Part shown: positions 21,138 through 63,865 of the stretch, one piece after another
Layout of the letters: every line of letters begins with the position of its first letter
How positions within the stretch are numbered: position 1 is the first letter of the stretch
Assembly: GCF_964213995.1 (NCBI RefSeq)
Contig: NW_027590160.1
Span: forward strand, 992,001 to 1,056,000
Source: Mustelus asterias
Lineage: Eukaryota
DNA length: 64,000 nucleotides
Direction: 5' to 3'
Notes under the pieces: generated by a model
What the model was told of the DNA's origin: nothing
Database searches by the model: none
What the model saw: the letters and a program-made list of their open reading frames with translations, nothing else
Program-made: the position numbers and the translations under genes

Positions 21138-22022
21138 AAGAAAGTGTTTTACTCACAGATGTTGCCCTCTTAAGGTCAAACCAAATAAACAAACTCCGGT
21201 TAAGTCAGGACAAAGTAAAAGGGGCAGCTCCCCAAAAGGAGGGGGAACAGCCCGAACAGAAATCAAAGTACAAAGGAAACTTAAAGATCAAATTAAAATG
21301 TGATTATTTGGGTCAATAACGCACCCCAACCTCTGCGGTGCTCAATGGGCGCGGAAGGTGTCAACCGCGCCCGTGGACACCGCATGCTCCCTCTCCAGGG
21401 ACACCTGGCCGCGAACGTAGCTGTGGTAGAGGGGAAGACAGTCAGGATGGACGGCCCCCTCGATCGCCAGCTGCCTGGACCAGTAAATGGCGCGTTTCGC
21501 CAGGCCCAGGAGCAGGTTCACGAGGAGGTCGCCATCCCGACCCTCCCCTCTCCGCACCAGGTGTCCGTAGATCAGGAGCGTGGGACTGAAGTGCAGACAA
21601 AACATCAATAAAAGGTTCTTCAGGAAAACATAAAGGGAGTGCAGCCTAAGACACTCAACATAGACATGGTCCACGGACTCCACAAGGCCACAGAAAGGGC
21701 AGTCTTTGGAGCCCGTGAACCAGTGAATCCTACGGTTGTGCGGAACTGCTGCATGCATCACCCTCCACCCCAGGTCCCTGACGTAATTGGGGGAGATCCC
21801 TCCGTAGAGGGACCTCCACTGGGGACCTCCGCTGACCATGGCAACAAGGCCCGCCAAGGTGTATCCGGGCGACAGGCGAGGAGGCAGTAGTGGAAGGTGT
21901 GCAGCAGCAGCCCGCACAGGAAACGCCTCCGCGCGGTAGAAAAAGGCACGGAGGACATTTCTGCGAGGCGGCTCAGGCTGTGGGGCACCTCACCCGGGGA
22001 GGGGGCTGAGGCTTTGGGCCAA

Positions 22023-25000: not shown

Positions 25001-26280
25001 CTGGACCAGTCCTTTAGCCAAAGATTCAATTGTACTAACTCCCTATTCTTAGCCTCACTGGCACGAGGCATTGGGAGCAGCCCAGAGATGGCCACCCTGG
25101 AGGCCCTACTTTTTAGTCTATTTCCCAACTCCCTGAATTGCTCTCGTAGGATCCCCCTGCTCTTCCTATCTACGTCAGTTGCACCAATGTGTACAATGAC
25201 ATCTGTTTCTTTATCTTCCCCTTTTTAAGATGCCTCCTATCCGCTTGGAGACATCCAGTACCCCAGCACCAGGTAGGCAGACTACCATCCTGGAGTCCCG
25301 TTCGCACCCACAGAATCGCCTGTCTGTGCCTCTAACCGACGCATCCCCCACCACTATTTCTCTCCTAATCCCTCTCTTTCCTTTCTGGGCCACAGAGCCT
25401 GACTTTGTGCCAGTGACCTGGTCACTGTGGCTTACCCCTGGAGAGTCATCCTCTTCCACACTATCCAAAACAATATACTTGTTTTGGAGTGGGACAACCA
25501 CGGGTGACCCCTCCACTAATTGCTCACTCCCCTCCCCTCTCACACCTATCGCCGAGCCCTTCCTATTATGAGAGACAGCCACTGGAGTACTCTCTGGTAC
25601 ACTACCCTTCTGACCTTTACTCCTCCTAACTGTGACCCACGTGTCTTCCTCCCGTTGCCCCGGTGTAACTAGTTCCCTATAACTCGTGTCAATTATTCTC
25701 TCATTCTCCCTGACTAGACCAAGGTCAGCAATCTGCAGCTCCAGTTCCCTGACACGGAACCTCAGGAGCTGCAGTTCCACGCACCTGGCACAAATGTGAA
25801 CCTCTGGGAGGCTAGGTGTTTCCAGGAACTCCCACATCCCACACCGGAAGCACCGAACTGGCCTATCGCTCATAGCTACCCTTATCCGATACAGGTTTGG
25901 ATAAAAATAACTTGCCCTGCCTCGCCCTTACCGCCTAAGCCCTCTGAGCCAAAGCCCTGACAGCTCTCACTCTGCTTCCCACAAGCCCTGTGAGCCAAAG
26001 CCCTGACAGCTCCCACTCTGCTTCACTTGCTCCACTGCCCGCTCGTAAGTGCTGCCTGCCTTTTAAAGCCAGCAACAAACCTCCCCAGGCCTACTTCCGG
26101 TTTTGAAAAAAAAACCTCCGATTTTACGCACAAAATTAACTGAAAAAAAAAATAAATCTCCACTAAAAAACACTCTCTTACCCTCAGTTCTCTCTGTGGA
26201 ACAGAGGCTGAAACCTCCAAGGCAATCCCTTTTTAAAGCCAGCAACAAACCTCCCCAGGCCGAGTAACCTGGGTTACATC
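22023..26280 (-). mobile_element. CR1 LINE, near full length but degraded, nested in Tx1 copy A
   Basis: ORF1 25211-25873 (C..C zinc finger, leucine zipper, SGNH esterase-like IVVGD); EN and RT fragments; same family as 52530-56650. Confidence 0.9.
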
Positions 26281-26299
26281 CCATCCGGACCTGGCGACT

Positions 26300-28440
26300 T
26301 ATCTATCTTGATGCCATTCAAAGATTCCAGCACAACCTCTTAAAGTCCACATACTCAATCTTTTCAGTCCACCACAAGCCCACAGTACATCCACCCATGT
26401 CCTTCTCTGTGAAAACCGAGGCAAAATACTCATTGAGCACCTCTGCCATTTCTACTGGTTCTGTACAGATTTTCCCACCTTCACCTTTTATAGGCCCTAT
26501 TCCGTCAGGTCTCATCCTTTTACTCTTCACATATTTATAGAATGCCTTGGGGTTCTCCTTAATCCTACCTGCCAGGGCCTTCTCGTGACCCATTCTGGCT
26601 CTCCTAATTTCCTCCTTTAGTCCCTTCCAACAAGCCGTATACTCTTCTAAATCCCTATCTTTGCCAAGCTCTGAGTCTTTTGTACGCTTTCCTTTTCTTC
26701 TTGACTAGGTCCCGCACAGCTTTCGTGCACCACGGTTCCTTTAACTGACCAACACCTCCCTGTCTGCTCGGAACGTTGTTCTGTAGAACTCTAGACAGGC
26801 ATTCCTTGAAAAACTGCCACCTCTCTTCAGTACACTTCCCTGAGAATACCTCCTTCCAATTTACTCCTCTAATTTGCTGCCTGCTGCCTTCATATTTCCC
26901 CTTACTCCATATAAACACTTTCCTGGCTTGCCTGATCCTCTCTTTTTTTTTCTAATGCAAGCCTAAAGGAGAGAGAGTTATGATCGCTATCCCCAAGATG
27001 CTCTCCCACTGAGAGATCTGACACCTGTCCAGGTTCATTGGTCAGTATCAGATCAAGTACAGCCTCTCCTCTTGTAGGCTTGTCCACATGCTGTGTCAGG
27101 AAACCCTCCTGAACACACCTAATGAACTCTTCCCCATCCAATCCCCTTACCCTCGGGATATTCCAATCTATGTTTGGGAAATTAAAGTCTCCCATCTCAA
27201 CAACTCTGCTATTACTGCATCTCTCCAGGATCTGTTACCCTATCTGCTCCTCCACCTCCCTGTTACTATTAGGCGGCCTATAGAAAACTCCCAGCAAAGT
27301 GACCGGCCCCTTTGCACTCTGTACCTCCACCCACAGAGACTCGGTGGACAATCCCTTCACAGCATACACCTTCTCTACAGCTGTGACACTATCCCTGATC
27401 AGCAGTGCCACTCCACCCCCTCTCTTGCCTCCCCTGTCCTTCCTGAAACATCTGAATCCCGGCACCTGGAGTATCCAGTCCTGTCCCTGAGACATCCGAG
27501 TCTCCGTAATGGCCACCACATCATACTTCCAGGCATCAATCCACACTCTAAGCTCATCCCCTTTATTCACTATACTCCTGGCATTAAAGTAAACAAATCT
27601 CAATCCTTTGGTCTGAGCTCTCCCCTTCTCTATTCCCTGTCCATTCACCCTCTTGCACTGCCTATAACCCTTCTGTTTGCGAGCTAACTTCCTCACTCTG
27701 ATCCCCTCCCCCAACCTATCGAGTTTAAACTCTCCCCAGTAGCCTTAGCCAACCTTCCTGCCAGGATATTGGTCCCCCTGGGATTCAAGTGCCACCCGTT
27801 TTTTGTGTACAGGTCACACCTGCCCCTGAAGAGGTCCCAATGGTCCAGGAACCTGACTCCCTACCCCCTGCACCAGTCCCTCAGCCACACATTCATCCTC
27901 CACCTCACTCCATTCCTGTCCTCACCTTCCCATGGCACAGGCAGCAATCCTGAGATTACTACCTTTGCTTTCCTCCTCCTCAGCTGTCTCCCTAATTCCC
28001 TATACTCTCTTTTCATGACCCCTTCCCCCTTCCTTCCCACATCAGCGGTACCAATATGTACCGCTACCTCCGGCTCCTCTCCCTCCCCCCTCAGGATTTC
28101 TGGGACTCGCCCAGCAACATCCTGAATCCCAGCCCCAGGGAGGCAGACCACCATGCGAGACTCCCACCTGCCTCCGCAAAATCGCCTGTCCGTCCCCCTG
28201 ACTGCCGAGTCCCCGATTAATACTGCCTTCCCCTCTTTAGCCCTCTGAGTTACAGGGCCGGACTCCTCCCCGGAGACACGGCCACTGCTGCTTCCCCCAG
28301 GCGGGCTGTCCCCCCCCCCCCCCCCCCCAACAGTACTCAGGCAGGAGTACTTGTTGTGTAGGGGCACATCCACCGGGGTGCTCTCAATCACCCGAGCTTT
28401 ACCCTTCCTGGCCGTCACCCACTTGGCCTCCTCCTGTGGA
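26300..28440 (-). mobile_element. Second CR1 LINE fragment (ORF1 esterase plus endonuclease)
   Basis: AVLIGDSAVRG..VVCLPGA; YFNARSI..ITET; GDFNFP..SDHN. Confidence 0.85.
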
Positions 28441-28746
28441 CCACCTGATGATAGGGACACGAACATTGGGGTGTTGCCCCAGTCCCCCGACAGACTGAAG
28501 AAGAACTCCGGGTTGTAACCGGCCGGGTGGAACGGAACCGTGGGGGCCCCGCTGCCACCCGGCCCCGGAGACTCCTCGCCGGGGGACTGAGGCAGCACAC
28601 GCTTTGACTTACAGGGTGCCTTGCCCCCTTTTTTCTGGGGACAAGGCACAAAGACAGGTGGGGGCACGGCAGGAGATGACTCACAAGGGGGGAGGGGCAC
28701 GCAGACCTCGAACTCTACGGTGCCCGAGGGGCCCCGCCTCTTTTTG

Positions 28747-29859
28747 TTAACCTGCTCTCGGGCAAGTGAGGCCCCTCTTCGCCTTGCCGCACCCCTCCTG
28801 ACCCCCCATCACATCCCCCCGAGGTGGTGGCGTCACCAGTGTTGCCGGCTCGGGGTCGCTAACCCCCCCATGCTCGGGCCCATGATCCTGGGCATCCGCA
28901 GCGCCGGACCCAGCACTAGGCCCCGGAGAGCCCACGGGCCCGGCAGATGGTGGTGGTGGGGGGGGGGGTGCAGGGTGCAGGTGGAGACTGAGGTGGTCCC
29001 CGAGCCGGCTGCCGGGGTGGTCGGGGTGTCTTTCCTGGGGGCCGGGGTTCTGGTACCCCCCTTCTTTTTTGTAGGTCCCTTCTGGGTCTTCTGGCCACAC
29101 GGAGGCTCCGCTCCCCCCCCCGCTGGCAGCTGAGGTGACAGCTGCTGCCGGCGTGGCCTCCCCTCGCGGGGGGGCAGATGGTACTCGCTTGGGGGGAGAG
29201 GGGGCTGCGGTGCCAGCTGCGGCCACCTTGGGTTGGCGGTCGGCGGCCTTGGAGACGGGGCAGTTTTTCCGCACGTGCCCCGCCTCCTTACAGGCATGGC
29301 ACCGCACACCGTCCGCGGACCAAAAGACCCGGTAAGTGGTCCCCTCGTGGGGGACATTGAACCATCCCTCCAGTTCCTCCTCCCGGGCCAGGCGGACAAA
29401 AACCTGGCGCCGGAAGGAGTATATATGGCGGAGGAAGGGGTCCCGAAGGCCGAGCGGGATCGGCTGCACCCCGGACCTGACCTCCCCCAGTAGATGGAGG
29501 TGGGGGAGGAGGAGCTCACTCGGTAGGAAGGGCGGGACGTTCGAGATGATGATCCCGCCCACCGTGAGCTCCCTCTCCAGGGCGAGGTGGACCGCCCGCT
29601 CGGCCTTCAAAAAGAATACGGCCCGGCCGTACATCTTAGAGGCCGCGACAATGGCTGAGGGGCCGACAACCCCAGCCATTGCCTTGACGCAGGCCTCGAT
29701 AGACATGTCGGGGTGGGCGTAGCACTTCACCCCGAGCTGTCTGGTTATCAATGAAAATGGCGGCAGGGCCTTGGGAGCGGCGGGGGCTCTGGCAGCTGCC
29801 ACGCCCGCATAGGTGGGCCGAGAAGGCCCTGCCACCGGCGACGCTGTTGATGTCGCCAT
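28747..29859 (-). pseudogene. Tx1 ORF1 (gag-like, CCHC knuckle), frameshifted C-terminus
   Basis: AIVAASKMYGRAVFFL, IIISNVPPFL, CHACKEAGHVRKNC. Confidence 0.8.
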
Positions 29860-30624
29860 CGTATCAAGGGAAGTGCTACACCCACCCCGAGACTGCCCAG
29901 ATGTACGGCAGGGCGTATGTGAGGAGGGGAAAATAAGGGTAGGTGGGGAGGGGTGTCGGTGCTCTTTCCCCGGAGTGAGAGGGGAGAGGAGGTCGGAGGA
30001 GTAGGAGGGAGACGAGGAACAAGGCCGGTGCCCCAGTCAGGAGGGAAAAAGGGGAGGGGGTGCCAATCTTGGGGGCAGCAGCAGTTGGTGGGGGACTTAG
30101 GAAAGGTCTTCACCCCCCCCCACTGCAGATGGAGAAGAGACAGTCCAAACACCTTCGCCCCCCCCTCCCCTCCAGTCACTCCCTGTCCTCTCTTCCTCCC
30201 TCCCCCCGGGGAGAGCGCACCCTCCAGAGGCCGGACGGCAGGCAGGCAGTCCAGACGGCAGGCAGGCAAAACGGCAAGACGGCAAGCAGGCAGGCAGTCC
30301 AGACGGCAGGCAGGCAGGCCGGGGGGCAGGCCGGGCGGCAGTCCGGGTGGCAGGCCAGGCAGTCCGGGCGGCAAGGCAGGCAGCAGCTCGCCTCCCTCCT
30401 TCCTTTCCCCTTCCCTCCCTCCTTCCTCCCCGCAGGGAGCCAAGAACAAGCAAGCAAAAACAAAACAAACAGAACTGGTCGTCTTCCCAAACAAACTGAA
30501 AAATAAAGTGCGTTACTCACAACAAAACAAAAAGAAAGCAAGCCCACAGTTTCCGCCTGGTTCTGACCCGGGGTTTTCCGCGTCTCCAGCGAACGTGAAT
30601 CCACTTCACTACAGAAACAAAATT

Positions 30625-30810
30625 AGATGTTGCCCAGAGGAGGAAGTGTCACTCTGAAGCTCATTGGCCAACTTCTGCATTGTGACATCACAAACCTGCC
30701 TGAATCAGCCAATCGGAATCACCCTGCTCCGCGGTGACGTCTCCGGGTTCCAGTGAGCAGGCCCTGGCGCGTGGACCCGGGAGCCCCGCCCCCACCCATT
30801 GTTCCCCTCT
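30625..30810 (-). promoter_or_regulatory. ZNF-type promoter and first exon upstream of Tx1 copy A
   Basis: 30720-30806 paralogous to 51690-51760; 30625-30663 resembles exon 51300-51345; CCAAT, CRE-like and GC boxes. Confidence 0.65.
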
Positions 30811-33632: not shown

Positions 33633-36600
33633 GACACAGTAAGAAGTTTAACAACACCAGGTTAAAGCCCAACAGGTTTATTTGGTAGCAAAAGTCACAA
33701 GCTTTCGGAGCCTTAAGCTCCTTCTTTCGGTGAGTGGGAATTCTGTTCACAAACAGGGCATATAAAGACACAAACTCAATTTACAGAATAATGGTTGGAA
33801 TGTGAATACTTACAGATAATCAAGTCTTAAAGGTACAAACAATGTGAGTGGAGAGAGCATTAAGACAGGTTAAAGAGATGTGTATTGTCTCCAGGACAGC
33901 CAGTGCGACTCTGCAAGTTCAGGCAAGCTGTGGGGATTACAGATCGTCATTACAGATCGATTGTGAGTGAGAGTGAGGAAGGTAGCTCGCAAACAGAGAA
34001 GGGTTATAGGCAGTGCAAGAGGGCAGGTGGACTGGGAACAGAGAAGGGGAGAGGTCAGACCATAGGATTGAGAGGTGTCTACTCTAATGCCAGGAGTATA
34101 GTGAATAAACAACTAGCTAAAGGAGGAGAGGGCTTGGGAGATGTTAGTAGCGCTTCAACAAACCGGGTCCAGATAAAGGCTGGCATAAAGACACTTTGCC
34201 TGAATGCACGAAGCATTCGAAACAAAGTAAATGAGTTGATGGCACAAATCCATACAAATGAATATGATCTAGTATCCATCACAGAAACGTGGTTGCAGGG
34301 TGACCAGGACTGGGAACTGAATATACAGGGTTATCAGGCATTTAGGAAGGATAGACAGGTAGAAAAAGGAGGTGGGGTAGCTTTGTTAATAAAGGATAAT
34401 ATCAGGACAGTAGTGAGACACGACATAGGCTCTAAGGAGCAAAACGTGGAATCGTTGTGGGTGGAGATATGGAATAGTAGGGGGAGAAAGACACTGGTAG
34501 GCATGGTCTATAGGCCCCCAAATAATAACTTAGAGGTGGGGAGGGCTATAAACAAGCAAATAATGGATGCGTGCAAAAGTGGAACGGCAATAATCATGGG
34601 GGATTTTAACCTACATATTGATTGGTCGACTCAAATTGGACGTGGAGGGCTTGAGGAAGAGTTCTTGGAATGCTGTCGGGATTGTTTCATTGAACAGTAT
34701 GTTACAGAACCTACGAGAGAGCGAGCTATCTTGGATCTGGTTCTGTGCAATGAGACAGGTCGGATTAAGGCTCTTCTTGTGAAGGATCCTCTTGGGATGA
34801 GTGATCATAATATGGTGGAATTTCTGATACAGATGGAGGAGGGTGAGAAAGTAGGGTCCCAAACCAGTGTCCTCTGCTTGAACAGAGGGGGGTACGATAG
34901 GATGAGGGTGGAATTGGCTAATGTAGACTGGGCGAGCAGACTGGTAGGTAGGACAGCTGAGGAACAGTGGAGGATTTTTAAGGAGATTTTTTTAAGTACT
35001 CGGCAAAAATATATTCCGGTGATAAAGAAGGACTGTAAGAAAAAGGATAACCGGACGTGGATAACGAAGGAAATAAAGGAGAGTATTAAAATAAAATCAG
35101 ATGCGTACAGAGTGGCCAAAAATAGTGGAGAATTAGTGGATTGGGAAAGCTTTAAAGAAAAACAAAGAACGACTAAGAAAGCGATTAAGAAAGGAAAGAT
35201 AGATTATGAAACTAAACTAGCTCAAAATATAAAAAATGATAGTAAAAGTTTTTACAAGTATATAAAAAGGAATAGAGTGGCTAAAGTGAATGTTGGACCC
35301 TTGGAAGATGAAAGGGGGGATTTAATAGTGGAAAACGAGGAAATGGCTGAGACTTTAATTAAGTTCTTTGTGTCGGTCTTCACGGTGGAAGACACAAATA
35401 GTTTGCTGAATATTAGAGATCGAGAGTTGGTGGGAGGGGAGGTCCTTAATACAATTACTGTTACTAAGGAGGTGGTGCTTGGTAGACTAATAGGACTGAA
35501 GGTAGACAAGTCCCCGGGCCCGGATGAAATGCATCCCAGGGTACTGAAAGAAATGGCTGAGGTAATAGCAGATGCGTTAGTAGTAATTTATCAAAATTCG
35601 CTGGACTCTGGGGTAGTGCCGGCTGACTGAAAAACAGCTACTGTTACGCCGCTGTTTAAAAAAGGAAGTAGACAAAAGGCGGGTAACTACAGGCCGGTTA
35701 GCTTAACGTCCGTAGTTGGGAAGATGCTAGAGTCCATTATTAAAGAGGAAATAACAGAGCACCTGAATAAGAATGGTTCGATCAAGCAGACGCAACATGT
35801 ATTCATGAAGGGAAAGTAGTGTTTGACGAATCTACTGGACTTTTATGAAGATGTCACTAATGCGGTTGACAGAGGGGAACCGGTGGATGCGGTGTTTTTA
35901 GATTTCCAGAAGGCGTTCGATAAGGTGCCTCACAAAAGGTTGCTGCAGAAGATTGGGGTACACGGAGTTAGGGGTAAGGTGTTGCCGTGGATTGGGGATT
36001 GGCTATCTAACAGGAAGCAGAGAGTTGGGATAAATGGGTGCTTTTCTGGTTGGCAGTTGGTGAGCAGTGGCGTGCCGCAGGGATCGGTGCTGGGGCCTCA
36101 ATTGTTTACCATTTACATAGATGATCTGGAGGAGGGGACTGAATCTAGGGTATTCAAGTTTGCTGATGACACGAAGGTGAGTGGGAAAGCGAATTGCGTG
36201 GAGGACGCGGAAAGTCTGCAGAGTTTTGGATAGGCTGAGCGAGTGGGCGAGGATCTGGCAGATGGAATATAACGTTAGCAAATGTGAGGTTATCCACTTT
36301 GCAAGAAATAATAGTAAATTGGAATATTATTTAAATGGAGAAAAATTACATCGTGCGACTGTGCAGAGGGACCTGGGGGTCCTTGTGCACGAATCGCAAA
36401 AACTCAGTCTGCAGGTGCAGCAGGTGATCAAGAAGGCGAATGGAATGTTGGCCTTTATCGCGAGGGGGATAGAATATAAAAGCAGGGAGGTCTTGCTGCA
36501 ACTGTACAAGGCACTAGTGAGGCCGCAACTGGAGTACTGTGTGCAGTTTTGGTCCCCTTATTTGCGAAAGGATATATTGGCCTTGGAGGGAGTGCAGAGA

Positions 36601-41439: not shown

Positions 41440-44230
41440 TAGAATGAATCACCTCACATTTATCCGGGTTAAACTCCATTTGCCATTTTTCAGCCCAGCT
41501 TTGCATCCTATCTATGTCTCCTTGCAGCCTACAACAGCCCTCCACCTCATCCACTGCAAATCCACCAACATTCTGCAAATCCACCAACCTTTGTGTCATC
41601 CGCAAACTTTCTAATCAATCCAGTTCCATTTTCCTCCAAATCATTGATATATATTACAAACAGAAAGGTCCCAGCACTCATCCCTGAGGAACGTCACTTG
41701 TCACAGCCCTCCATTCAGAAATGCACCCTTCCACTGCTACCCTCTGTCTTCTATGATCAAGCCAGTTCTGTATCCACCTTGCCAGTTCACCTCTGATCCC
41801 ATGCAACTTTACCTTCTGCACCAGTCTGCCACGAGGGACCTTGTTAAAGGCCTTACTGGTGTCCATGTAGACAACATCCACTACCCTACCCTCATCAATC
41901 ATCTTCGTCACTTGCTCGAAAAACTCGATCAAATTAGTCAGACATGACCTCCCCTTCACAAAACCATGTTGCCTCTCGCTAATACGTCCACTTATTTCCA
42001 AGTTGGAGAAAATCCTGTCTCGAAGAATCCTCTCCAATAATTGCCCTACCACTGACATAAGGTTCACCGGCCTGTAATTACCTGAATTATTCTTGCTACC
42101 CTTCTTAAACAAAGGAACAACATTGGCTATTCTCTAATCCTCTGGGATTTCCCCTGTAGTCATGATGTGGAGATGCCGGCGTTGGACTGGGGTAAACACA
42201 GTAAGAAGTTTAACAACACCAGGTTAAAGTCCAACAGGTTTATTTGGTAGCAAAAGCCACACCAAACCTGTAGTGGGAGGAAAAACACTATTTACTATCC
42301 AGGGTTAAATGAATGTCCTTCATCAGCTTTTGTGGATAATTTTAACGGAAATATCCTGCTGTACTCTCTGATGGTCCTCATCACATTAGAACATAGAATG
42401 AATCACCTCACATTTATCCGGGTTAAACTCCATTTGCCAAGTAGACTTATATTAACACTGCAGTGAAGTTACTGTGAAAATCCCCTCATTGCCACACTGA
42501 GTGTGGCTTTTGCTACCAAATAAACCTGTTGGACTTTAACCTGGTGTTGTTAAACTTCTTACTGGATTTCCCCTGTAGCCAGTGAGGATACAAAGATTTC
42601 TCTCAAGGCTCCAGCAATTTCCTCCCTTGCCTCTCTCAGTACTTTGGGGTATAAGAACATAAGAACTCGGAGCAGGAATAGGCCATCTGGCCCCTCGAGC
42701 CTGCTCTGCCATTCAATAAGATCGTGGCCGATCTTTTTGTGGACTCAGTTCCACTTACCCGCCCGCTCACCATAACCCTTAATTCCTTTACTGTTCAAAA
42801 ATGTATCTATCCTTGCCTTAAAAACATTCAATGAGGTAGCCTCAACTGCTTCACTGGGCAGGGAATTCTACAGATTCACAACCCTTTGTGTGAAGAAGTT
42901 CCTCCTCAACTCAGTCCTAAATCTGCTCCCCCTTATTTTGAGGCTGTGCCCTCTAGTTCGAGTTTCACCCGCCAGTGGAAACAACTTACCTGCTTCTACC
43001 TTATCTATTCCCTTCATAATCTTATGTTTCTATAAGATCTCCCCTCATTCTTCTGAATTCCAATGAGTATAGCCCCAGTCTACTTCGTCTCTCCTCATAA
43101 GCCAACTCTCTCAACTCCGGAATCAACCTCATGAATCTCCTCTGCACCCCCTGCAGTGCCAGTATATCCTTTCTCAAGTAAGGAGACCAAAACTGTACAC
43201 AGTACTCCAGGTGTGGCCTCACCAGCACCTTATACAGCTGCAACATAATCTCGCTGTTTTTAAACTCCATCCCTCTCGCAATGAAGAACAAACTTCTATT
43301 TGTCTTCTTAATTACCTGCTGCACCTGCAAACCAACTCCTTGAGATTCCTGCATAAGGACACCCAGGTCCCTCTGCACAGCAGCATGCTGCAATTTTTTA
43401 CCATTTAAATAAGAGTCCATTTTGATGTTATTCCTACCAAAATGGATGACCTCACATTTACCAACATTGTACTCCATCTGCCAGACCCTCGCCCACTCAC
43501 TTAGATTATCTATATCCCTTTGCAGACTTTCAGCATCGTCTGTATACTTTGCTCTTCCACCCATCTTAGTGTCATCTGCCAATTTTGACACACTACACTT
43601 GGTCCCCAACTCCAAATCATCTATGTAAATCGTAAACAATTGTGGTCCCAATACCGATACCCCATTAGGCCCTGAGGACTTGTCTACCTTAATGTTTCTC
43701 AAAAACCCCAATATCTCCTCCTATTTGATCTCAATATGACTCAAACTATCTACATATCCTTTCCCAGGTTCATCATCCACCAACTCCTTCTCTTTGGTGA
43801 ATACTGACACAAAGTACTCAATTAATACCTCGCCCATTTCCTCTGGCTCCATACAGAGATTCCCTCCCCTGTCCTTGAGTGGGCCAACCCTGTCCCTGGC
43901 TACCCTCTTGCTCTTTATATATTCCACACTTGCTTCATGTGTTCCCAGCCTTGACAAGTGCTTCCTTTTTCTCTTTGACGAGACTCACAATATCTCTCGT
44001 TATCCAAGGTTCCCTAAACTTGCCATATTTATCCTTCACATGGCTGCAGGGTGACCAGGGGTGGGAATTGAATGTCTCAGGGTATTCAATATTTGGGAAG
44101 GACAGGGATAAAGGAAAAGGTGGTGGAATGGCACTGCTGGTTAAAGAGGAAATTAACACAGTAGTGAGCAAGGATATTAGCTCTGACAACATGGAGCCTG
44201 TATGGGTAGAGTTGGGAAATATCAAGTGGG
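41440..44230 (-). mobile_element. Stack of CR1 fragments, mostly minus strand
   Basis: RT motifs in ORFs 41678-42112, 43022-43711, 43721-43957; 3'UTR near 42655. Confidence 0.85.
42162..42563. mobile_element. Penelope inverted terminal-repeat insertion enclosing copied local DNA
   Basis: Inverted arms 42198-42261 / 42501-42564; TSD ggatttcccctgtag on both sides. Confidence 0.8.
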
Positions 44231-45982: not shown

Positions 45983-46825
45983 TCACTCGTGAACTCGCTG
46001 GTGTCTCAACAGCTCGGATGAATCTCTGAATCTCTTCTCACACACAGAGCAGGTGAACGGTTTCTCTCCAGTGTGAACTCGCTGGTGCCTCCGCAGGTGG
46101 GATGACTGAGTGAATCCCTTCCCACAATGAGAGCAGGTGAATGGTCTCTCCCCAGTGTGAACTCGCTGGTGCCTCCGCAGGTGGGATGAACAAGTGAATC
46201 CCTCCCCACACACGGAGCAGGTGAATGGCCTCTCCCCAGTGTGAATTCGCTGGTGTGTCCACAGGGTGTATAATCGAGTGAATCCCTCCCCACACTGAGA
46301 GCAGGTGAATGGCCTCTCACCAGTGTGGACTCGCTGGTGTGTCCGCAGGCTGGATGAATCACTGAATCCCTCCCCACACTGAGAGCAGGTGAAGGGTCTC
46401 TCCCCAGTGTGAACTCGCTGGTGTCTGCACATGTACGATAACCGAGTGAATCCCTTCCCACACTGAGAGCAGGTGAATGGTCTCTCTCCAGTGTGAACTC
46501 GCTGGTGAGTGCGCAGGGTGGATGACTGAGCGAATCCCTCCCCACACTGAGAGCAGGTGAACGGCCTCTCCCCAGTGTGAACTCGCTGGTGTGTCCGCAG
46601 AGTGTTTAACAGACTGAATTCCTTCTCACACTGAGAGCAGGTGAACGGTCTCTCTCCAGTGTGAACTCGCTGGTGTTTCTGCAAGGTGGCTAACAGAGCG
46701 AATCCCTTCCCACACTGAGAGCAGGTGAACGGCCTCTCCCCAGTGTGACTGCGCCGATGAGCTTCCAGCTCTGATGGGGCTCTGTATCTCTTCCCACAAT
46801 CCGCACATTTCCATGGTTTCTCCAT
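45983..46825 (-). CDS. C2H2 zinc-finger protein, ~280 aa, 10 intact fingers
   Basis: MEKPWKC start as in paralogs; uninterrupted TGERPF-linked array; acceptor ttttacag at ~47171. Confidence 0.9.
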
Positions 46826-48103
46826 GGTACAGGTGTCCTTTCCTCTCTCTTGGGTGGACAATGAGTTGAAGCCTCGTCCACACACAGGACACTGGTACAG
46901 TCTTTCCTCACTGTGAATGGTGTGATATTTATTCAGGCTGTGTAACTAGTTAAAGCTCTTTAGTCAGTGCATTGGAACACTCTCACTCGACAGTGTGTTG
47001 GTGCTTTTCCAGTCACACTGATGTTTGAATTTTTTTTCAAATCAACAGACTGGACAATCATTTCTCCTTCTAAATTCAAAGGCCGATGATATTCAGCTCC
47101 CAAGGAATATGACTGTCAGATCTAGACGTGACATTTGAGATTTCAGCCTGTGGTTCCTCTTTCAATATCCTGTAAAATGAGTTAGAAATAGAAGTAGAAA
47201 TTCAGAACAGACAATTCTAGTTTCTATGGAACATTCTTTCCGTTCTCATTCCCCAAAAGCTGTAAATCTCCATTCCACACACTCTCCCTCCATTCTCACT
47301 CTGCTGTATCTAATATTCACCCTCCCAATTCTCCTGAAGGTGCTGATTGAGGCTGATTGACAGATCCATGCTCACTGCTTCCTGTCCACCACATACAAAT
47401 CATAAGAAACAGGAGCTGCAGTTGGCCATTCAGCCCATCGAACTGCCTCAACCATTCATTGAGAATTGGCTGGTCTACCTCACACTATTTCCATAGCGCC
47501 ACTATTTCCCAAACTATCATGGAAGTTAGTAAGATAGAGGGTTATAGGTAAGCCTCGTAGCTAGGGACATGTTCGGTGTAACTTGTGAGCCGAAGGGCCT
47601 GTTTGTGGTGTAGCTTTTCTATGTTCTATGTTCTGTCCCCCATGTTGCTCAATGCCTCAAAAGTTACCAATCTCTCTCTTGAAAATATTTGATGACTGAG
47701 GCTCCACAGTCCTCTGGAGTGCAGAATTCAAAAACTTCACCACATCCTTGAGTGAGGAAATCCCTCATCATCTTAACTTTCACTCCATTTTCCCACTTGT
47801 TCGCCATAACGCTTGACTCCTTTATCAATGTAATATCCACCTAACTCATCCTCGAATATCTTCAATAACCCTCAGCTTCCACTGATCCCTGTGGAAGAAA
47901 AATCCAAAGACTAATGATTCTAATAAGCAAGAGATGAATAACTGGAAATATATAATATATATACTATTCAGGCTGATTGACAGATCCATGCTCACTGCTT
48001 CCTGTCCTGGATGTGGAGACGCCGGCGTTGGACTCGGGTAAACACAGGAAGAAGTCTCACAACACCAGGTTAAAGTCCAACAGGTTTATTTGGCAGCACA
48101 AGA

Positions 48104-48138
48104 CACGAGCTTTCGGAGCGCTGCCCCTTCATCAGGTG
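48104..48138 (-). ncRNA. Minimal type I hammerhead ribozyme motif
   Basis: cac-CUGAUGA-a-ggggc(agc)gcucc-GAAA-gc-UC-gug. Confidence 0.7.
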
Positions 48139-50677
48139 AGTGGGATTTCAGTTCACAAACAGGACATATAAAGACACAAACTCAATTTACAAAATAATGG
48201 TTGGAATGCGAGTTTTTACAGGTAATCAAGTCTGAAAGGTCCAGACAATGTGAGTGGAGAGACGTTTAAGCACAGGTTAAAGAGATGTGTATTGTCTCCA
48301 GCCAGGACAGTTAGTGAGATTTTGCAAGCCCAGGCAAGTCATGGGGGTTACAAATAGCATGACACGAACCCAAGATCCAAGTTGAGGCCGTCCTCATGTG
48401 TGCGGAACTTGGCTGTCAGTCTCTGCTCAGCGACTCTGCGCTGTCGTGTGTCGTGAAGGCTGCCTTGGAGAACGCTTACCCGAAGATCAGAAGCCGAATG
48501 CCCGTGACCGCTGAAGTGTTCCCAACAGGAAAAGAACACTCTTGTCTGGTGATTGTTGAGCGGTGTTCATTCATCCGCTGTCATAGCGTCTGCATGGTCT
48601 CCCCAATGTACCATGCCTCGGGACATCCTTTCCTGCAGCGTATCAGGTAGACAACGTTGGCCGAGTTGCAAGTGTATGTACCGTGTACCTGGTGGATGGT
48701 GTTCTCACGTGAGATGATAGCATCTGTGTCGATGATCCGGCACGTCTTGCAGAGGTTGCTGTGGCAGGGTTGTGTGGTGTCATGGTCACTGTTCTCCTGA
48801 AGGCTGGGTAGTTTGTTGCAGACAATAGTCTTTTTGAGGTTGTGCGGTTGTTTGAAGCCAAGTAGTGGGGGTGTGGGGATGGCCTTGGCGAGATGTTGGT
48901 CTTCATCAATGACATGTTGAAGGCTCCGGAGAAGATGTCGTAGCTTCTTCGCTCCGGGGAAGTACTGGACAACAAAGGGTACTCTGTCCTCCTGTCCAGT
49001 GTTTGTCTTCTGAGGAGGTCCGTTTTTCGCCGTGGCGCATCGGAACTGTCGATCGATGAGTTGAGCGCCACATCCTGTTCTTATGAGGGCATCTTTCAGC
49101 GTCTGGAGGTGTCTGTTGCGATCCTCCTCATCTGAGCAGATCCTGTGTATACGGAGGGCTTGTCCGTAGGGGATGGCTTCTTTAACGTGTTTAGGGTGGA
49201 AGCTGGAGAAGTGGAGCATCGTGAGATTATCCGTGGGCTTGCGGTACAGTGAGGTGCTGAGGTGACCGTCCTTGATGAAAATGTGTGTGCCCAAGAATGC
49301 AACCGATTCCGGAGAGTAGCCCATGGTGAGTCTGAAGGTGGGATGGAACTTGTTGATGTCATCATATCGTTGTTTCAGTGATTGTTCACCATAAGTCCAA
49401 AGGAAGAAAATGTCATCGATGTATCTAGTGTACAGCTTCGACTGAAGGTCATGTGCAGTGAAGAAGTCTTGTTCGAACCTGTGCATGAAGATGTTGGCAT
49501 ATTGAGGTGTGAATTTGGTCCCCAAGGCTATTCCGTGTGTCTGGATAAAGAACTGGTTGTTGAAGGTGAAGACATTGTGGTCAGGATGAAGTGGATGATT
49601 GTAAAATTGCATCTGGAGATTGGCAGTTGTTGGCGTTGAGTACTGAGGCAGTTGCACCAATGCCATCGTCGTGGGGGATGCTGGTGTAGAGTGCCGAGAC
49701 ATCCATTGTGATGAGGAGTGCTGCTGGTTCAACTGCTCCATGTGTGCTGTTTCTGAAGGAAGTCCGTAGTGTCACGACAGAAGCTGGGGTTCTTTGTACA
49801 ATGGGTTTCAGGATGCCCTCGACGTAGCCGGAGAGTTTCTCGCACAGGGTCCCATTGCCCGATACGATGGGACGGCCAGGTGTGTTTGCCTTGTGTATCT
49901 TCGGGAGGTAGTAGAGATCTCCAACGCGGGGAGTACGTGGGATGAGAGCACGGAGGGTGCTCTGAAGGTCCGGATCAAATGTCTTGATCTGTCTGTTGAG
50001 TTGACGGGTGTGTTCTTTGGTCGGATCTGCAGGTAACTGTCTGTAGTTTTCCTCATTGTTCAGTTGTCAGGACACTTTGCAGTAATTCGTTCTGTTCAGC
50101 ATGATGATTGCCCCTCCTTTGTCTGCTGGTTTGATGACAATGGTGCGCTTGATCTTGAGAGCGCAGATGGTGTTGCGTTGTGCTTGGGTGATGTTCGGGG
50201 CTGTCTTGTGAGTGTGACTGATGAATCTGGCATTGACGCACCTCCTGACGGCTTGGGCATACATGTCAAGTCGAGGGCAGCGGCCTTCCGGAGGAGTCCA
50301 ATTCGACTCTTTCCTCTTCGGTTGCTGTACCGTGGATCTCTCTATCGGCTGTTCCAGTTCATTGACTATCTCATTATGTTCGCTGTTGGCCTCTTGGGGT
50401 TTGTGGAAGAACTCCCGCAGCCTCATTCGCCTGATGAATTCCTCTGTGTCTGCTGCGAGACTGATGGGGTCTATTTTGGTGGTGGGGCAGAAATTGAGAA
50501 CTTCGATTTCATCTGGTTGAAGTGTGTCCGACAAGTTGACAATGGACTTCCCTGCAGTGGTACTGTTTTCTACTGTGGTACCGGGGGAGGCTTGATTGCT
50601 GCTGGTGGTGATGCCGAGTTTCTCAAGTTTCCTGTTCTACCAAATGTGGCATTGTGACGATGGCTTTGTGCTACCAA

Positions 50678-51016
50678 ATCGCTTCTCGGCCTTTTGGCTA
50701 AGATCAAGTGTAGTATGGATCGCCTGCACTTGGTTGGGGTCATTGGGTTACGCTGAGGCTTCATATGTTTCATATGAAGCAATTTTTAAAAGCGGCATCT
50801 CGGCCTTTTGGCTAAGATGCAAATGAGCTCAAGTCTTGGAGGAGGATCCTCCCCCTTCTCCAATCAGCTTGGCTCATGTAGATCGGGCCCAGGACTGGGT
50901 GGTTTTGGTCTCCCGCCCTGTCTTGTCAGCCTGGATCTGAAATGTCTCAACTTGTTGAGACTCTAAATTGGATTTGATTTGATTGAATTGGAAAAGTACA
51001 AAGAAATAAATAAATG
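50678..51016 (+). mobile_element. U2 snRNA-headed SINE-like element (~340 bp)
   Basis: 50678-50716 = U2 nt 1-39; second U2 nt 7-27 copy at 50798-50818; A-rich tail; interrupts Penelope repeat gctacca^aataaacctg. Confidence 0.75.
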
Positions 51017-51299
51017 AATAAACCTGTTGGACTTTAATCTGGTGTTGTGAGACTTCTTCCTGTTGTGGGCACAGAGAGCTGAAAATCTTCAAGCTGACAG
51101 TCACGTTACAGTTTTACATTTGGATATAAATGAGCAGACTGATGGTGTGTGTAATACACTGTATTACCTGGTTACAGATACATAAAGAATGTGAGGAGAA
51201 TCTTTACTTAGGCAGCGAGTGGTGACCCAGAAGTTAAAAATTGAAGCGCAAAATGAGAAAAGAAATGGAAAGGGGGAGAAAAGAAAGTGTTTTACTCAC

Positions 51300-51765
51300 A
51301 GATGTAGGAGACAGGAGGAAGGCTGAGTCTGTCTGAAGCTTAATCTTCATTCAGAGGGAGAGGAGCAGCAGCAACAATGGACGAAGCTCCGCGCGGCCAT
51401 TGACACAAGGCCCGGACTCTGATTGGCTGGAGGACCATCGCCCATCCGGTCCTCCTGGCAACCATTGGTCAATATGCCGCATGTGGACAATGAGGGGGCG
51501 GAACCCGAGCCCGCGTGGGGGTGGGCGGGGCTCTGACCGCCAGCCGCGCTGAGCTGGTGTCCAATCCGCAGTGTGCGGCTTCTGCAACCAGTGATATTGC
51601 TGCCAATGGGACAGTGTGTGCTGGGAACGCCCCTCTGAGTCATTGTGACGGCACAATGGAGCCCTGCCTCAATCACCCAAAAGCAATCACTCTGCTCCGC
51701 GGTGACGTCTCCGGGTTCAGGCGCACGGTCCCGGGAGCCCCGCCCCCACCCATTGTTCCCCAGTC
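51300..51765 (-). promoter_or_regulatory. Promoter and first exon, probably of ZNF 45983-46825; donor GTGAGT at 51299 (empty Tx1 target site)
   Basis: CpG-rich, CCAAT and GC boxes; exon paralogous to 579-629. Confidence 0.65.
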
Positions 51766-56650: not shown

Positions 56651-58172
56651 GAGACAGTAATTCTGTTGAATACGTGCTTTATTGCCCAGGCCTGGTCCAG
56701 GGGCGTCAGAGAATAATTTGGGGAAGCCAAACTATTCTAAATTCCATTGCTTCCAATATTACAATTATACAACTTTCAAAAATCATTTCCCCACCCACTT
56801 TGCTCACCCAGCCAGACATCAACCAATCATTATTCGTCTAGATTATTTACCTTGGCCAATAACATGTCACTCTCTGGCAGCATGAGAATACATAGGTCTA
56901 TAAATTCAAAAGTGCTTTTCCACTGTGTCCGAGCAATTCTTTATCGGGAAACGGTATGCTCTTATTCATTCAATTGTCTGGGAAGCTTGTACTGTCTGGA
57001 GCCAACACTGATGAGTTTTTTTTTGCTTAACTCAGTAGCTGTATTGTTTTCAAAGAATGTGGTTCTTCTTACATAGCTATATACCATCATGCCTTAGAGT
57101 GTCATTAGCCAAGGTGTATGATTTTAATACAGAATATATGTTATCAAAAATACATGTTTAAATTCACTAACAATGGTTATATGTATTTCTATGCAAACAG
57201 TACCTTTGTAACTCCAGGTACTTAGTGATTCTTCTTGAATATATTCACTCTAAATTAACCTATTCTGATATATTAGTCTTTTAGTCCCAGGTTGTCCTGA
57301 ACCCCCTCGAACAATGGACAAGGATGTAAATATCTCCCAGAGAAAGTGATCAACTTATTCATCCCATCGACACATTCCAGACTTTCACTGGAATGAACCA
57401 GGATTCCACATTGATATATTCCATTCAACCTCACCCACAGTGAGCTATTCCAATTTCTTTGTTCTCCAGGACAATATATTCACAATATCTTTAAAACAGA
57501 AATTAAACATTCCCATTTGATTTCAGGTATCAACATATTCTGTTAGTTTGTTCTTTATTGTCAATGTCAGGCTGGGGTTGTTCCCCTTGGAGCAAAGGAG
57601 GTTGAGGGGAGATTTGATAGAGGTGGACAAGATTCTGACAGGTTTAGATAAGGTGGACAAAGAAAAGCTGTTCCCATTAGCTGATGGGACAAGGATGAGG
57701 AGGGACACAGATTTAAGGTTTTGGATCAGAGATGCAGCGGGGGATGTGAGGAAGAAAATTTGATGCAGTGAATGGTAATGATCTGGAACTCGCTGCCTAC
57801 GAGGGAGGAGGAAGTGGAGACAATAAACAATTACAAAGGAAATTGGATGGGCATTGGGGGGTTTCAAACAGAAATAGTGACTATCTCTTAACTTCCTAAC
57901 ACCCTGTCACTCTGTGATCCTTGTGAAATTTGAAACCAGGTATTCGCAACAAGACTCAAAGAGCATCAGCCCACTGGAGGCAAAGCCATGAGACCGACCA
58001 GTCCAGCAGAAAGAAACTCTCCGACCCTCCCCATTGACCAACTGTGAGAATGAACAAAATGTAGTCCTGGGTGTAATTAAGAGCAGAAACAATAACAGCA
58101 GAATCCAAACCCTGGAATCACTCGTGAACTTGGTGGTGTCTCAACAGATGGGATGAAAGACTGAATATCTTC

Positions 58173-58958
58173 TCACACAGAGCAGCTGAACGGTCTCTCC
58201 CCAGTGTAAACTCGCTGGTGTATTCGCAGGTTGGATAACCGAGTGAATCCCTTCCCACACTGAGAGCAGGTGAACGGTTTCTCCCCAATGTGAACTCGCT
58301 GGTGTGTCACCAGGCTGGATGAATCACAGAAACCCTTCCCACACTGAGAGCAGGTGAACGGCCTCTCCCCAGTGTGAACTCGCTGGTGTATCTGCAGGCG
58401 GGAGGACCCAGTGAATCCCTTCCCACATTGAGAGCAGGTGAATGGCCTCTCCCCAGTGTGAACTCGCTGGTGTGTCAGCAGGCTGGATGAATCACAGAAT
58501 CCCTTCCCACACACAGAGCAGGTGAATGGCCTCTCCCCAGTGTGAACTCGCTGGTGTCTCTGCAGGTGGGATGACTGAGTGAATCCCTCCCCACATCGAG
58601 AGCAGGTAAAGGGCCTCTCTCCAGTGTGAACTCGCTGGTGTTTCCGCAGGTCGGAAGACCGAATGAATCCCTTCCCACACTGAGAGCAGGTGAACGGCCT
58701 CTCCCCAGTGTGAATGCGCTCATGGACCAGCAGGTCGGAAGATTGAGTGAATCCCTCCCCACACTGAGAACACGTGAATGGCCTCTCCCCAGTGTGAACT
58801 CGCTGGTGTCTCTGCAGGCTGGATGACTGAGTGAATCCCTTCCCACACTGAGAGCAGATGAACGGCCGCTGCCCAGTGTGGATGAGCCGATGAGCTTCCA
58901 GCTGAAATGGGTATCTGTATCTCTTGCCACAGTCTGCACATTTCCATGGTTTCTCCAT
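58173..58958 (-). CDS. C2H2 zinc-finger protein, 9 fingers (9th has H->Y), 10th finger frameshifted
   Basis: Paralog of 45983-46825; last finger continues out of frame to the ancestral stop near 58119; could be a pseudogene. Confidence 0.75.
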
Positions 58959-59957
58959 GGTGCAGGTGTCCTTGCCTCTCTCTTGGGTGGACAATCAGTT
59001 GAAGCCTCGTCCACACACAACACAGGTACAGTCTCTCCCCGCTGTGAATGGTGTGATATTTATTCAGACTGTGTAACTGGTTAAAGCTCTTTCGTCAGTG
59101 CATTGGAACACTCTCACTCGAGTGTGACAGTGTGTTGATGCTTTTCCAGTCACACTGACATTTCAAATCGACAGACCGGACAATCATTTGTCCTTCTGGA
59201 TTCAAAGTCCGATGATATTCAGTTCCCAAGGAGTATGACTCTGTCAGATCTAGACGTGACGTTTGAGTTTTCAGTCTGTGATTCCTCTTTTAATATCCTG
59301 TAAAATGAGTTTACAAAAGTCATCAGTGTCAGTACAGGATAGAAATTCAGAGCAGACAATTCTAGTTTCTCTGGAACATTCTTTCCTATTTCAGTCCCAA
59401 AAAGCTGTAAATCTCCATCCATATCTATGGATTCTATTTAAAAATGAAAGTGGATGGGCACTTGAAGGAAATAAACTTGCAGGAGAATGGGATATAGAGT
59501 GGGAATGGGACTGGAATGTTATACAGAGAGTCAGCATGGACTCGAGTTACCAAATGGATTCCTTCTGTGCTGTAATGACTTTATGACTGGAAATGTATAA
59601 CATCGCTACAGCTTCATATTACAACGCAAGAGCTGTAAATCTCCATCCCACACACTCTCCCTCCATTCTCACTCTGCTGTATCTAATATTCACCCTCCCA
59701 ATTCTCCTGAAGGTGCTGATTGAGGCTGATTGATAGATCCATGCTCACTGCTTCCTGTCCTGGACAGACAGAGCTGGAAATCTCCATGCAGGCGGCCAGA
59801 CAGATATATGTCTATCTGACTGGACTAACAATGTGTGGAACATACCGACTGGATTCACTTCATTCCCTTCAGTTGCTGCAAGTCCCCAATTTACCCCAGA
59901 ATGAGAAAAGAAATGGAAAGGGGGAGAAAAGAAAGTTTTTACCCACAGATGTTGGCC

Positions 59958-61502: not shown

Positions 61503-62455
61503 TAAGAACAAAGAAAATTGCAGCACAGGAACAGGCCCTTCGGCCCTCCAAGCCTGCACCGACCATACTGCCCGACTTAACTAAAACCCACTACCCTTCC
61601 AGGGACCATATCCCTCTATTCCCATCTCATTCATGTACTTGCCGCTTAAAAGTCAAGACCGTATCTGCTTCCACTACCTCCCCCGGCAATGAATACCAGG
61701 CACCCACCACTCTCTGTGTAAAACATCTGCCTCGTACATCTCTTTTAAACTTTACCCCTCGCACCTTAAACCTATTCCCCCCAGTAATTGACTCTTCCAC
61801 CCTGGGAAAAAGCTTCTGACTATCCACTCTTTCCATGCCTCTCATAATCTTGTAGACTTCTATCAGGTCTCCCCTCAACCTCCATAGCTCAAGTGAGAAC
61901 AAACCAAGTTTCCCAACCTCTCCTCATAGCTAATGCCCTCCATACCAGGCAACATCCTGGTAAATCTTTTCTGGACTCTCTCCAAAGCCTCCACATCCTT
62001 CTGGTAGTGTGGCGACCAGAATTGAACACTATATTCCACGTGCGGCCTAACTAAGGTTCTATAAAGCTGCAACATGACTTGCCAATTTTTAAACTCAATG
62101 CCCCAGCCGATGAAGGTAAGCATGCCGTATACCTTCTTGACGACCTTCTCCACCTGCATTGCCACTTTCAGTAATCTGTGTACCTGTACACCCAGGTCCT
62201 TTGCCTATCAATATTGTTAAAGGTTCTGCCATTTACTGTATATTTCCTATCTGTATTAGACCTTCCAAACTGCATTACCTCACATTTGTCCGGATTAAAC
62301 TCCATCTGCCATCTCTCCACCCAAATCTCCAACTGGTCTATATCCTGCTGTATCCTCTGATGGTCCTCATCGCTATCCGCAAATCCACCAACCTTTGTGT
62401 CGTCCGCAAACTTACCTATCAATCCAGTTACATTTCCTCCAAATCATTTATATAT
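61503..62455 (-). mobile_element. CR1 LINE 3' part
   Basis: FADD, RPHVEYSVQFW, 3'UTR. Confidence 0.9.
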
Positions 62456-62469
62456 ATTATATATATCCT

Positions 62470-62900
62470 GTTTGAATTCGCTGTTGTGTCCAAAGACTGG
62501 ATGGCCCAGCAAAATCCTTCCCACACAAGGAGCAGGTGAACAATCTCTCCCCAGTGTGAACTCGCTGATGTGCATTGAGGTTGGATGAACATGAGAACCC
62601 CTTTCCACAGGCAGAGCAGCTGAACGGCCTCTCCTCAGTGTGAATTTGCTGGTGTAACAGCAGGTGGGATGAGATAGTGAATCCTTTCCCACGCACAGAA
62701 CAGATGAATGGCCTCTCTCCAGTGTGACTGTGTCTATGGTTTTACAGCAAGTATGGATAATTGAATCCTTTATCACAATCATCACATTTCCATGGTTTCT
62801 CCATTTTCCCAGCCCCAATGTGACCGTGTCGATGGGTTTCCTACCGGGATGGAGAATTGAATCCTTTACCACAATCCTCACATTTCCACGGTTTGTCCAT
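62470..62900 (-). pseudogene. C2H2 ZNF pseudogene, about 4-5 fingers, cut by CR1
   Basis: MDKPWKC start, TAG in finger 1, C->R in a later finger, same leader relic as paralogs. Confidence 0.8.
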
Positions 62901-63865
62901 GGTGCTGGTGTCCTTCTGTCTCTCTAGGTTGGATGATTAGTTGAAGCCTCATCCACATACAGACCATGGTGTGATGTTTTTCAGGCTATGTAACTGGCTA
63001 AAGCTCTATCCACAGTCAGTTCACTGGAGCACTCTCACTTGGGTGTATGTGTGTGTCTCAGTTCTTTTTCTGTCACATTGAATTTTGAAATTTTCTCCCA
63101 CTGACAAAACAGGGAACGATTTATCCCTCCACTGTCAAAAGCAATCATATTTAGGTCATGATGAATCGAATGGCTCTGTCAGACTTTGATGTGAAGTTTA
63201 GTTTGAGTTTCCTGTCTGTGAATCTTCCTCTTCTATTTCCCTGCACAAAGAGTTTTAAAAAACTGCTTCAGAACAGACAATTTCAGTTTCCACGAAACAT
63301 TTCTCTGTCTCATTTATCTTGAGCTGTAATCCCCATCCTACACACTCTCTCTTGTCCCTGAGCTGAAATCAAACTCATTGCCCCAACTCCACTCTGAGCT
63401 CAGCTCCCTCTCCCTCCAGCTGGATTCAGTCCTGCAGGCCATGTGCAGATTGAGAGTACAATCAAGGAGTCAATTATTTTCCTTCCAAGTCAGGGGATGT
63501 GCAGCCCCACTGACTCTGTTGTTACCATAATGGGCACACGTGCTCTGTTCAACAATGAAACACCACGATGGCCATTAACATGGGCCTGTTCCTTGGAAAG
63601 GCTCCATTTTATTTGTGCCAAAACAGCAGCGGAATTACCTCCTGCACAGGGACAAAGGTATCATCAGTCACAGAAAATAATTGCAGCTGGTGTCTCAAAT
63701 CTCATTTTACCATTTGCTCCCAGACATTCTCAATTCAATTTTGAAATGCAAACTGAAATCTGGCAAAGTGGGGTAAATTAAACACATTTTAATGGTCATT
63801 TTCAGAATGACTATTCCCAAGAATTAATTCCTAAGTCAGTAAATTAAAATTCTCATCAGCAATGT

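Follow-up and report, generated by a model that had tools for sequence, protein, structure and literature searches.

A retroposed U2-headed insert of the shark Mustelus asterias with a predicted antisense lock on its head

Retroposons that carry a piece of small nuclear RNA (snRNA) at their 5' end were described as SINEU-1, -2 and -3, short interspersed elements (SINEs) reported, in the accessible part of that paper, from crocodilians only (Kojima 2015, PMC4494074). They are short and non-coding, have a U2-derived 5' head and more than one snRNA piece, contain internal T runs and no RNA polymerase III (Pol III) promoter, and can be placed in another repeat. All of them have poly(A) tails, and their transcription was left as an open question, since snRNA genes lack an internal promoter. 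A further connection between U2 and retroelements is provided by Keno (Tx1 clade) and Utopia, whose 3' flanks begin at U2 nucleotide (nt) 39, which places their insertion site at 38|39 (PMC4640811; PMC6136364). A precedent for non-autonomous elements co-transcribed from the host RNA gene that they target is found in the R2 SIDEs of 28S genes, and a leader of upstream 28S sequence is retained on many R2 RNAs (PMC3414825, PMC3774820). Here, we describe a 339-nt non-coding insert at positions 50678-51016 of a 64,000-nt stretch of Mustelus asterias DNA (contig NW_027590160.1; the whole stretch is hereafter called the window). The insert starts with U2 sequence, carries an antisense strand to this sequence and lies within a Penelope-like element. 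Our preferred reading, which is held tentatively and may well prove wrong, is that it represents a stray off-target copy of a non-autonomous retroposon that resides in U2 genes and relies on the U2 promoter for its transcription.

The insert shares with SINEU all of the traits listed above other than the poly(A) tail. By contrast, no antisense lock is described for SINEU in the accessible text of PMC4494074, the two being compared by description and not by sequence. With Keno and Utopia it has in common U2 sequence ending at their insertion site (PMC4640811, PMC6136364), but it is devoid of an open reading frame (ORF) and lies outside a U2 gene. The likeness to R2 SIDEs and to R2 RNAs with a 28S leader would lie in being non-autonomous, co-transcribed from the targeted host RNA gene and in keeping the leader. 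However, R2 has a ribozyme similar to that of hepatitis delta virus (HDV), whereas none of the simple core patterns is present in the insert, and the target would be U2 and not 28S (PMC3414825, PMC3774820). U2 snRNA itself (Rfam RF00004) agrees with the insert in the exact 5' 39 nt, and the Rfam cut-off is passed, but the head is followed by 300 nt of unrelated structure. Tailless copies among truncated U2 retropseudogenes have target-site duplications (TSDs) of 8-35 nt and no body (PMC5322556, in its accessible part). The insert works like a SINEU or an R2 SIDE. We file it neither as a SINEU, because it has no poly(A), nor as a Keno/Utopia derivative, because its 3' flank is not U2, nor as a U2 gene, because it has no promoter, a non-consensus Sm site and a head predicted to be buried. 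The predicted self-locking head is its distinctive trait among snRNA-headed retroposons. Neither a shark U2-headed element nor a non-autonomous Keno/Utopia derivative with a U2 leader was found in the literature searched, which left most subscription papers, Repbase and Dfam outside its scope, so that an entry may already exist. The accessible part of a paper on shark SINEs (PMC5499810) mentions neither snRNA nor SINEU.

The U2 head, its antisense strand and the structured body

The head (50678-50716, plus strand, as are all features of the insert) comprises stem-loop I, the U6-pairing segments and the branch-point recognition sequence of U2. An exact copy of U2 nt 1-39 had been noted at the 5' end, and two comparisons agree on it. 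All of the 39 first positions fit the Rfam U2 model, position 3 being a tolerated letter, and by eye the head equals nt 1-39 of human U2, as printed in the supplement of PMC4640811 (S1 Fig), diverging from nt 40. The Rfam match spans 50678-50884 with 50.9 bits versus a cut-off of 46, and its score is driven by the head. The end of the head likewise coincides with the Keno/Utopia site, as had been proposed: identity ends at nt 39 and the published site is 38|39. Since downstream U2 starts at nt 39, a leader of nt 1-38 would be expected, and a single additional matching letter has a chance of 1 in 4. There is no snRNA promoter immediately upstream, where Penelope DNA lies 5' of the head; lacking a U2 promoter, the copy in the window is probably silent.

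An antisense strand at 50724-50749, which is absent from the original prediction, faces U2 nt 11-36 in a single ungapped register with 14 Watson-Crick pairs, 8 G-U pairs and 4 other mismatches, none of which is A-C. As many paired positions (22/26) were reached in none of 4000 shuffles of the segment and occur nowhere else in the window on either strand, save in the head's own complement. In the predicted fold the two strands form a long rod (helix probabilities 0.83-0.99). The partner strand is off perfect complementarity at 12 of 26 positions while the head is unchanged, and 8 G-U stand against 0 A-C (one-sided p 0.004, with the rod ends taken from the predicted fold). A decaying inverted DNA duplicate would show G-U and A-C equally and mutations in both arms, which is not the pattern observed. 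A fixed head next to a diverged partner is expected if a constrained gene supplies the head and the partner alone evolves. A count over all helices (15 G-U versus 1 A-C) was set aside as biased, because these helices were picked from the plus-strand fold. Across the predicted ensemble, stem-loop I of the head in its native form has a probability of 0.00, and the pairing probability of nt 25-36 is ≥0.95. The computed cost would be 8.2 kcal/mol for imposing stem-loop I or for releasing the branch-point segment, and 12.7 kcal/mol for a head fully open as in U2. As modelled, the U2 head is locked and not displayed. This weakens the earlier suggestion of an snRNA-mimicking architecture, given that the prediction buries the parts that pair with the branch point and with U6, and that the Sm-like site departs from the consensus.

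The antisense strand is followed by a perfect hairpin at 50758-50780 (gcttcatatg-ttt-catatgaagc; 10/10 Watson-Crick pairs, 3-nt loop). Next to it lies a U-rich, Sm-site-like segment (50781-50788), predicted to be single-stranded (unpaired probability 0.82-1.0), which is also a potential Pol III stop and is placed at about the Sm register of U2 by the Rfam alignment. The consensus Sm site is purine-A-U4-6-G-purine, and a pattern scan with the G found no match inside the insert. Thus, the Sm-site-like AATTTTT noticed originally is present and single-stranded by prediction, but it lacks the consensus G and its pattern is not rare by itself, AATTTTTA plus purine occurring 10 times in 128 kb (window, both strands). 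The second U2 piece, at 50795-50820, corresponds to stem-loop I (nt 4-29; positions 7-26 of the Rfam U2 model). It is identical to the head at 23 of 26 positions, and its pairs comprise 9 Watson-Crick, 1 G-U and the native A-C mismatch. Each of its three differences from the head closes a new pair at the stem base, in keeping with the extended pairing noted before, although two of them may fall just outside the U2-derived part. Both U2 pieces of the insert are predicted to be shut. Two long interrupted hairpins with no known homolog are then predicted at 50823-50877 (6+5+10 bp, z -6.9) and 50879-50939 (6+4+6+6 bp, z -4.8). A 7-bp hairpin at 50944-50961 (gtctcaa/ttgagac, 7/7 Watson-Crick pairs) stands just ahead of the tail and is a candidate stem-loop for recognition by a reverse transcriptase (RT); like the ttggag/ctccaa hairpin, it is found where it had been placed. 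The tail (50962-51016) consists of degenerate pentamer repeats followed by A-rich repeats with AATAAA. It is therefore A-rich, as described earlier, but is an AATAAA-containing microsatellite and not a run of poly(A). It shows no homology to the Tx1, CR1 or SINE copies of the window. Its pentamers are reminiscent of L2-type tails, a likeness that found no confirmation in the literature consulted.

Within the insert, the longest frame without a stop encodes 58 amino acids and had no match among 1.84 billion proteins. Patterns of hammerhead, HDV-like and twister-like ribozyme cores are absent from the insert, as is the B box, and the only A-box-like match is located within the second U2 piece. 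No Rfam family exceeded its cut-off on the body. A SNORD94 match there, on the opposite strand (E 0.015), reached 20 of 60 bits and was rejected as chance. The tail gave a weak U6-like match at 50964-51005 (E 4.4, 11.4 bits), which may be due to chance and whose sole interest lies in the presence of U2 pieces in the insert. The CpG ratio (0.47 versus 0.41 in the window) does not indicate an age.

The insert folds at -136.8 kcal/mol, with z -7.4 relative to 100 shuffles; repeats of the test gave -7.9 and -8.4. Where no U2-related sequence is present (50821-51016), z is still -5.4, indicating that the folding signal is more than that of the U2 pieces. Of 73 further segments of 339 nt (146 strands, with 9 shuffles per strand), two strands fell below -7.4, and in a retest with 40 shuffles a GC-rich piece of Tx1 coding sequence at 29601 was the only one to rival the insert (-9.6 and -8.0). 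This stretch, in ORF1 of the Tx1 element, folds unusually well in its own right (z -8 to -10). For the 350-nt SINE-like repeat that is common in the window, z is +1.6. The difference in folding energy between the strands of the insert, 33.9 kcal/mol, was reached by 11 of the 73 segments and is not distinctive. Taken as modelled, the folding points to a real, selected RNA structure within a real insertion.

Insertion site and the possible route from U2 genes

The insert splits an inverted fragment of a Penelope terminal repeat. The left half (50659-50677, plus strand) equals the empty site of other copies in the window, and the right half (51017-51063, plus strand) is identical to 48044-48090 at 46 of 47 positions. 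The right flank has 11 matches in the window including its own, and the intact copy at 48090 was used for comparison. The claim that the insert was retroposed, made from the split repeat, is borne out by these flanks. The left flank follows the empty site 3 nt beyond the point where the right flank resumes, two of these three letters being U2 nt 1-2. The overlap is thus at most 3 nt, consistent with the reported lack of a clear TSD, and judged from the sequence it would reflect either microhomology or the duplication of 1-3 nt, which falls short of a TSD of LINE-1 or Tx1 size. The 3' junction may be placed anywhere within 51017-51023 (7 registers), because tail and target share AATAAA-type sequence, and the tail may accordingly run on to 51022. 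With the last of these registers, 5 of 6 letters downstream agree with the U2 target as published, a weak and post hoc similarity that is also found in 5974 of 127972 random stretches (4.7%).

Such a setting could also have arisen through Penelope itself. The Penelope RT may have switched template at the AATAAA common to both while it was synthesising the inverted fragment, making the insert a passenger or one-off chimera, or the insert may belong to a composite Penelope subfamily. Its position within an inverted terminal fragment, the AATAAA-type sequence common to tail and target and the 2-3 nt overlap at the 5' junction all fit this scenario. However, none of the 10 other terminal-repeat matches in the window carries the insert, and the scenario accounts for the route to the site but not for the locked U2 head, which needs selection on RNA. 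We consider it the least probable of the explanations weighed here.

We infer the following course of events for an off-target copy from a U2-resident retroposon. The source copy would sit inside a U2 snRNA gene at 38|39, the site used by Keno and Utopia, where the external U2 promoter would give rise to a capped RNA consisting of U2 nt 1-38 followed by the element. The first segment of the element would pair with this leader into the rod and keep the chimeric RNA from U6 and branch sites, so that no poisoned U2 is made. A U2-targeting non-long terminal repeat retrotransposon would then bind the 3' hairpin and tail and reverse-transcribe the RNA. If the target is a U2 gene, the leader would hybridise with it and merge into the gene without trace; at an off-target site it would be copied along, so that the resulting insert has U2 nt 1 as its very first position.

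With a source in a live U2 gene, one would expect the insert to begin at nt 1, U2 identity to cease at nt 38-39, the leader to stay constant while the 5' strand of the element adapts to it, and a Pol III promoter to be absent. The insert does start at U2 nt 1, its U2 identity stops at nt 39, its head is unchanged beside a diverged partner, and the missing B box together with four T runs argues against a Pol III promoter. The absence of poly(A), the AATAAA near the end and the lack of a real TSD resemble off-target copies of Utopia in crocodilians (PMC4640811), and R2 SIDEs with their 28S leaders provide the precedent. Of the two origins originally put forward, a SINEU-like family or a Keno/Utopia parasite, the unchanged head and diverged antisense strand strengthen a parasite resident in U2. 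Support for family status is indirect only and comes from shared sequence words (see below). Several points weigh against the U2-resident source. This copy has Penelope on both sides, its 3' flank is not U2 from nt 39 onwards, and the upstream side of its target is not U2-like. In the material surveyed, no copy was seen with a U2 promoter flank or with U2 nt 39 onwards. The single Tx1 of the window has nothing in common with the tail. In its accessible part, the Utopia paper (PMC4640811) lists no autonomous Keno or Utopia for sharks, and the word 'shark' is absent from it. According to the same paper, reptile Utopia generate TSDs of 20 bp in U2 genes, which would give a longer leader, and those of their 3' ends that were compared by eye are U-rich, unlike the tail here. 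A further event would be needed to account for the internal stem-loop I, the structures are all predictions made on a single sequence, and template switching can add U2 heads with variable break points (PMC4494074).

The last possibility leads to a dispersed, SINEU-like family, in which template switching would have added U2 twice to a structured body, with read-through transcripts mobilised by Tx1, L1 or L2. The internal stem-loop I would be the older head and nt 1-39 the newer one, which became a fixed part. We regard such a family, the main rival reading, as unlikely, although it deserves appreciable weight. The presence of two U2 pieces is better explained by it than by a U2-resident source, and subfamilies of crocodilian SINEU-1 show repeated 5' addition of U1 and U2 pieces, T runs without Pol III boxes, and targets with a TSD, a deletion or no change (PMC4494074). 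The insertion into another repeat is paralleled by SINEU in Mariner-N4 (PMC4494074), and a partial presence of the insert's words in 10 studies is also in line with dispersal. On the other hand, a SINEU-like origin does not lead one to expect that the break falls precisely at 38|39 or that the head stays unchanged when its partner differs at 12 of 26 positions, all SINEU have the poly(A) tail (PMC4494074) that the insert lacks, and the 64-kb window contains one copy only. The U2-resident and SINEU-like readings may be stages of one history, because Keno clusters with the Tx1 group by which SINEU are driven, a group that includes one U2-headed member (PMC4494074). If sources reside in U2 genes and use the U2 promoter, as the head ending at the Keno/Utopia site and the co-adapted antisense strand suggest, this would offer a testable answer to how SINEU are transcribed. 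The predicted lock further suggests how a transcript with the functional end of U2 at its start can be tolerated by the cell. Should the family instead prove to be dispersed, snRNA-headed retroposons would still be extended to a second vertebrate lineage.

Probable relatives of the insert in other data

The 64-kb window holds no further copy of the insert. In an index of sequencing runs, 24 runs were listed, 16 of which hold 0.21-0.53 of 34 sampled words; these figures are word shares, not resolved into copies or flanks. The 16 runs come from 10 studies with 11 organism labels plus one metagenome label ('hot springs metagenome', 0.29). When the best study is set aside as the possible source of the sequence, nine studies and 10 organism labels are left. 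Rows at 0.09-0.12 (four) and 0.00 (four) were taken as no evidence, and no RNA-derived run was present among those listed. Only 9 of 309 words fall inside the U2 head, making it implausible that at least seven sampled words stem from U2 alone (p 3e-06 if sampling was random). The shares would correspond to 95-98% identity if changes are evenly spread, or to a shorter, well-conserved part. Thus, the insert probably belongs to a family. Scans for exact patterns of the body yielded 0 and 0 hits in prokaryote genomes, 0 and 24 in viral contigs, and two loci in metagenome contigs. The 26 viral and metagenomic loci were rejected as chance, only the pattern plus ≤6 letters being matched. Such chance-only matches are expected, as these collections are poor in shark DNA.

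Conservation of this kind is also what would be seen for a retrocopy of a host Sm-class RNA gene, a remodelled U2 variant maintained in sharks. Its first 200 nt would have the layout of U2, namely a 5' domain, a hairpin, a single-stranded Sm site and two 3' stem-loops. Indeed, Rfam aligns 50678-50884 end to end with U2, the U-rich site falling in the Sm register and being single-stranded by prediction, and word shares of 0.21-0.38 in other organisms amount to ~95-97% identity if changes are evenly spread. Slow sequence evolution in sharks can also explain the conservation of the insert. Beyond the head, however, the Rfam alignment is one of generic hairpins and not of sequence, the Sm consensus G is missing, and the prediction leaves the segments on which U2 function depends buried. 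A further 140 nt of hairpins and the repeat tail are retroposon-like. We therefore find a host RNA gene very improbable. For the U2-resident retroposon, a bolder version would posit that sharks harbour a conserved family of U2-gene parasites with the U2 promoter and an antisense-silenced leader, whose RNA would enter Sm and small nuclear ribonucleoprotein (snRNP) maturation through the U-rich site flanked by hairpins, for capping, stability and nuclear import. This version is speculative and on balance improbable, though slightly less so than the host gene. If it were true, it would define a class of retroposons by a borrowed snRNA promoter and the hijacking of snRNPs, and would explain the transcription of snRNA-headed SINEs.

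The Penelope-like element and its surroundings

The element that received the insert is a 5'-truncated Penelope-like retroelement at 48010-50658 on the minus strand, recognised by its ORFs, an RVT_1 domain (E 2.9e-06 in a profile search) and a terminal repeat. Its ORF is broken over three frames (50067-50636, 49581-50066 and 48581-49771, all minus strand). The best homologs of the RT are from sharks, with Mustelus asterias first (86% identity) and Scyliorhinus and Heptranchias next, which points to a shark as host, probably a ground shark. The terminal repeat is intact and has a hammerhead-like core near 48135, located with a core pattern. The inverted terminal-repeat fragment, the one split by the insert, sits at the truncated 5' end of the element. 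Ten more terminal-repeat matches are distributed over 2272-3066, 6064-6099, 9430-9476, 12936-12983, 33636-33682, 42198-42564 and 48044-48090. Some of them are short and occur in inverted pairs (2897-3031, 42198-42564), and hammerhead-like cores of these terminal repeats are seen at 9381 and 48135.

The window is rich in repeats, with C2H2 zinc-finger arrays, built of 84-nt repeats, lying among dense retroelements. The arrays are found at 3463-4547, 11212-12066, 18900-19340, 45983-46945, 58124-58994 and 62444-62923. Well-kept GC-rich tandem repeats are located near them (28 nt x7 at 1771-1965 and 60 nt x3.3 at 13768-13966), and a related sequence at 51390-51760 may be promoter-like. The Tx1-type element occupies 21156-30632 on the minus strand, with ORF1 starting from ~29850 and ORF2 ending at 21342. 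It is flanked by an 11-nt direct repeat and contains nested CR1-type pieces. Also nested in it is a frame at 27861-28808 (minus strand) with a weak GDSL-lipase-like match (E 1.4e-05, below the cut-off), which we take to resemble the esterase-type ORF1 of CR1-group long interspersed elements.
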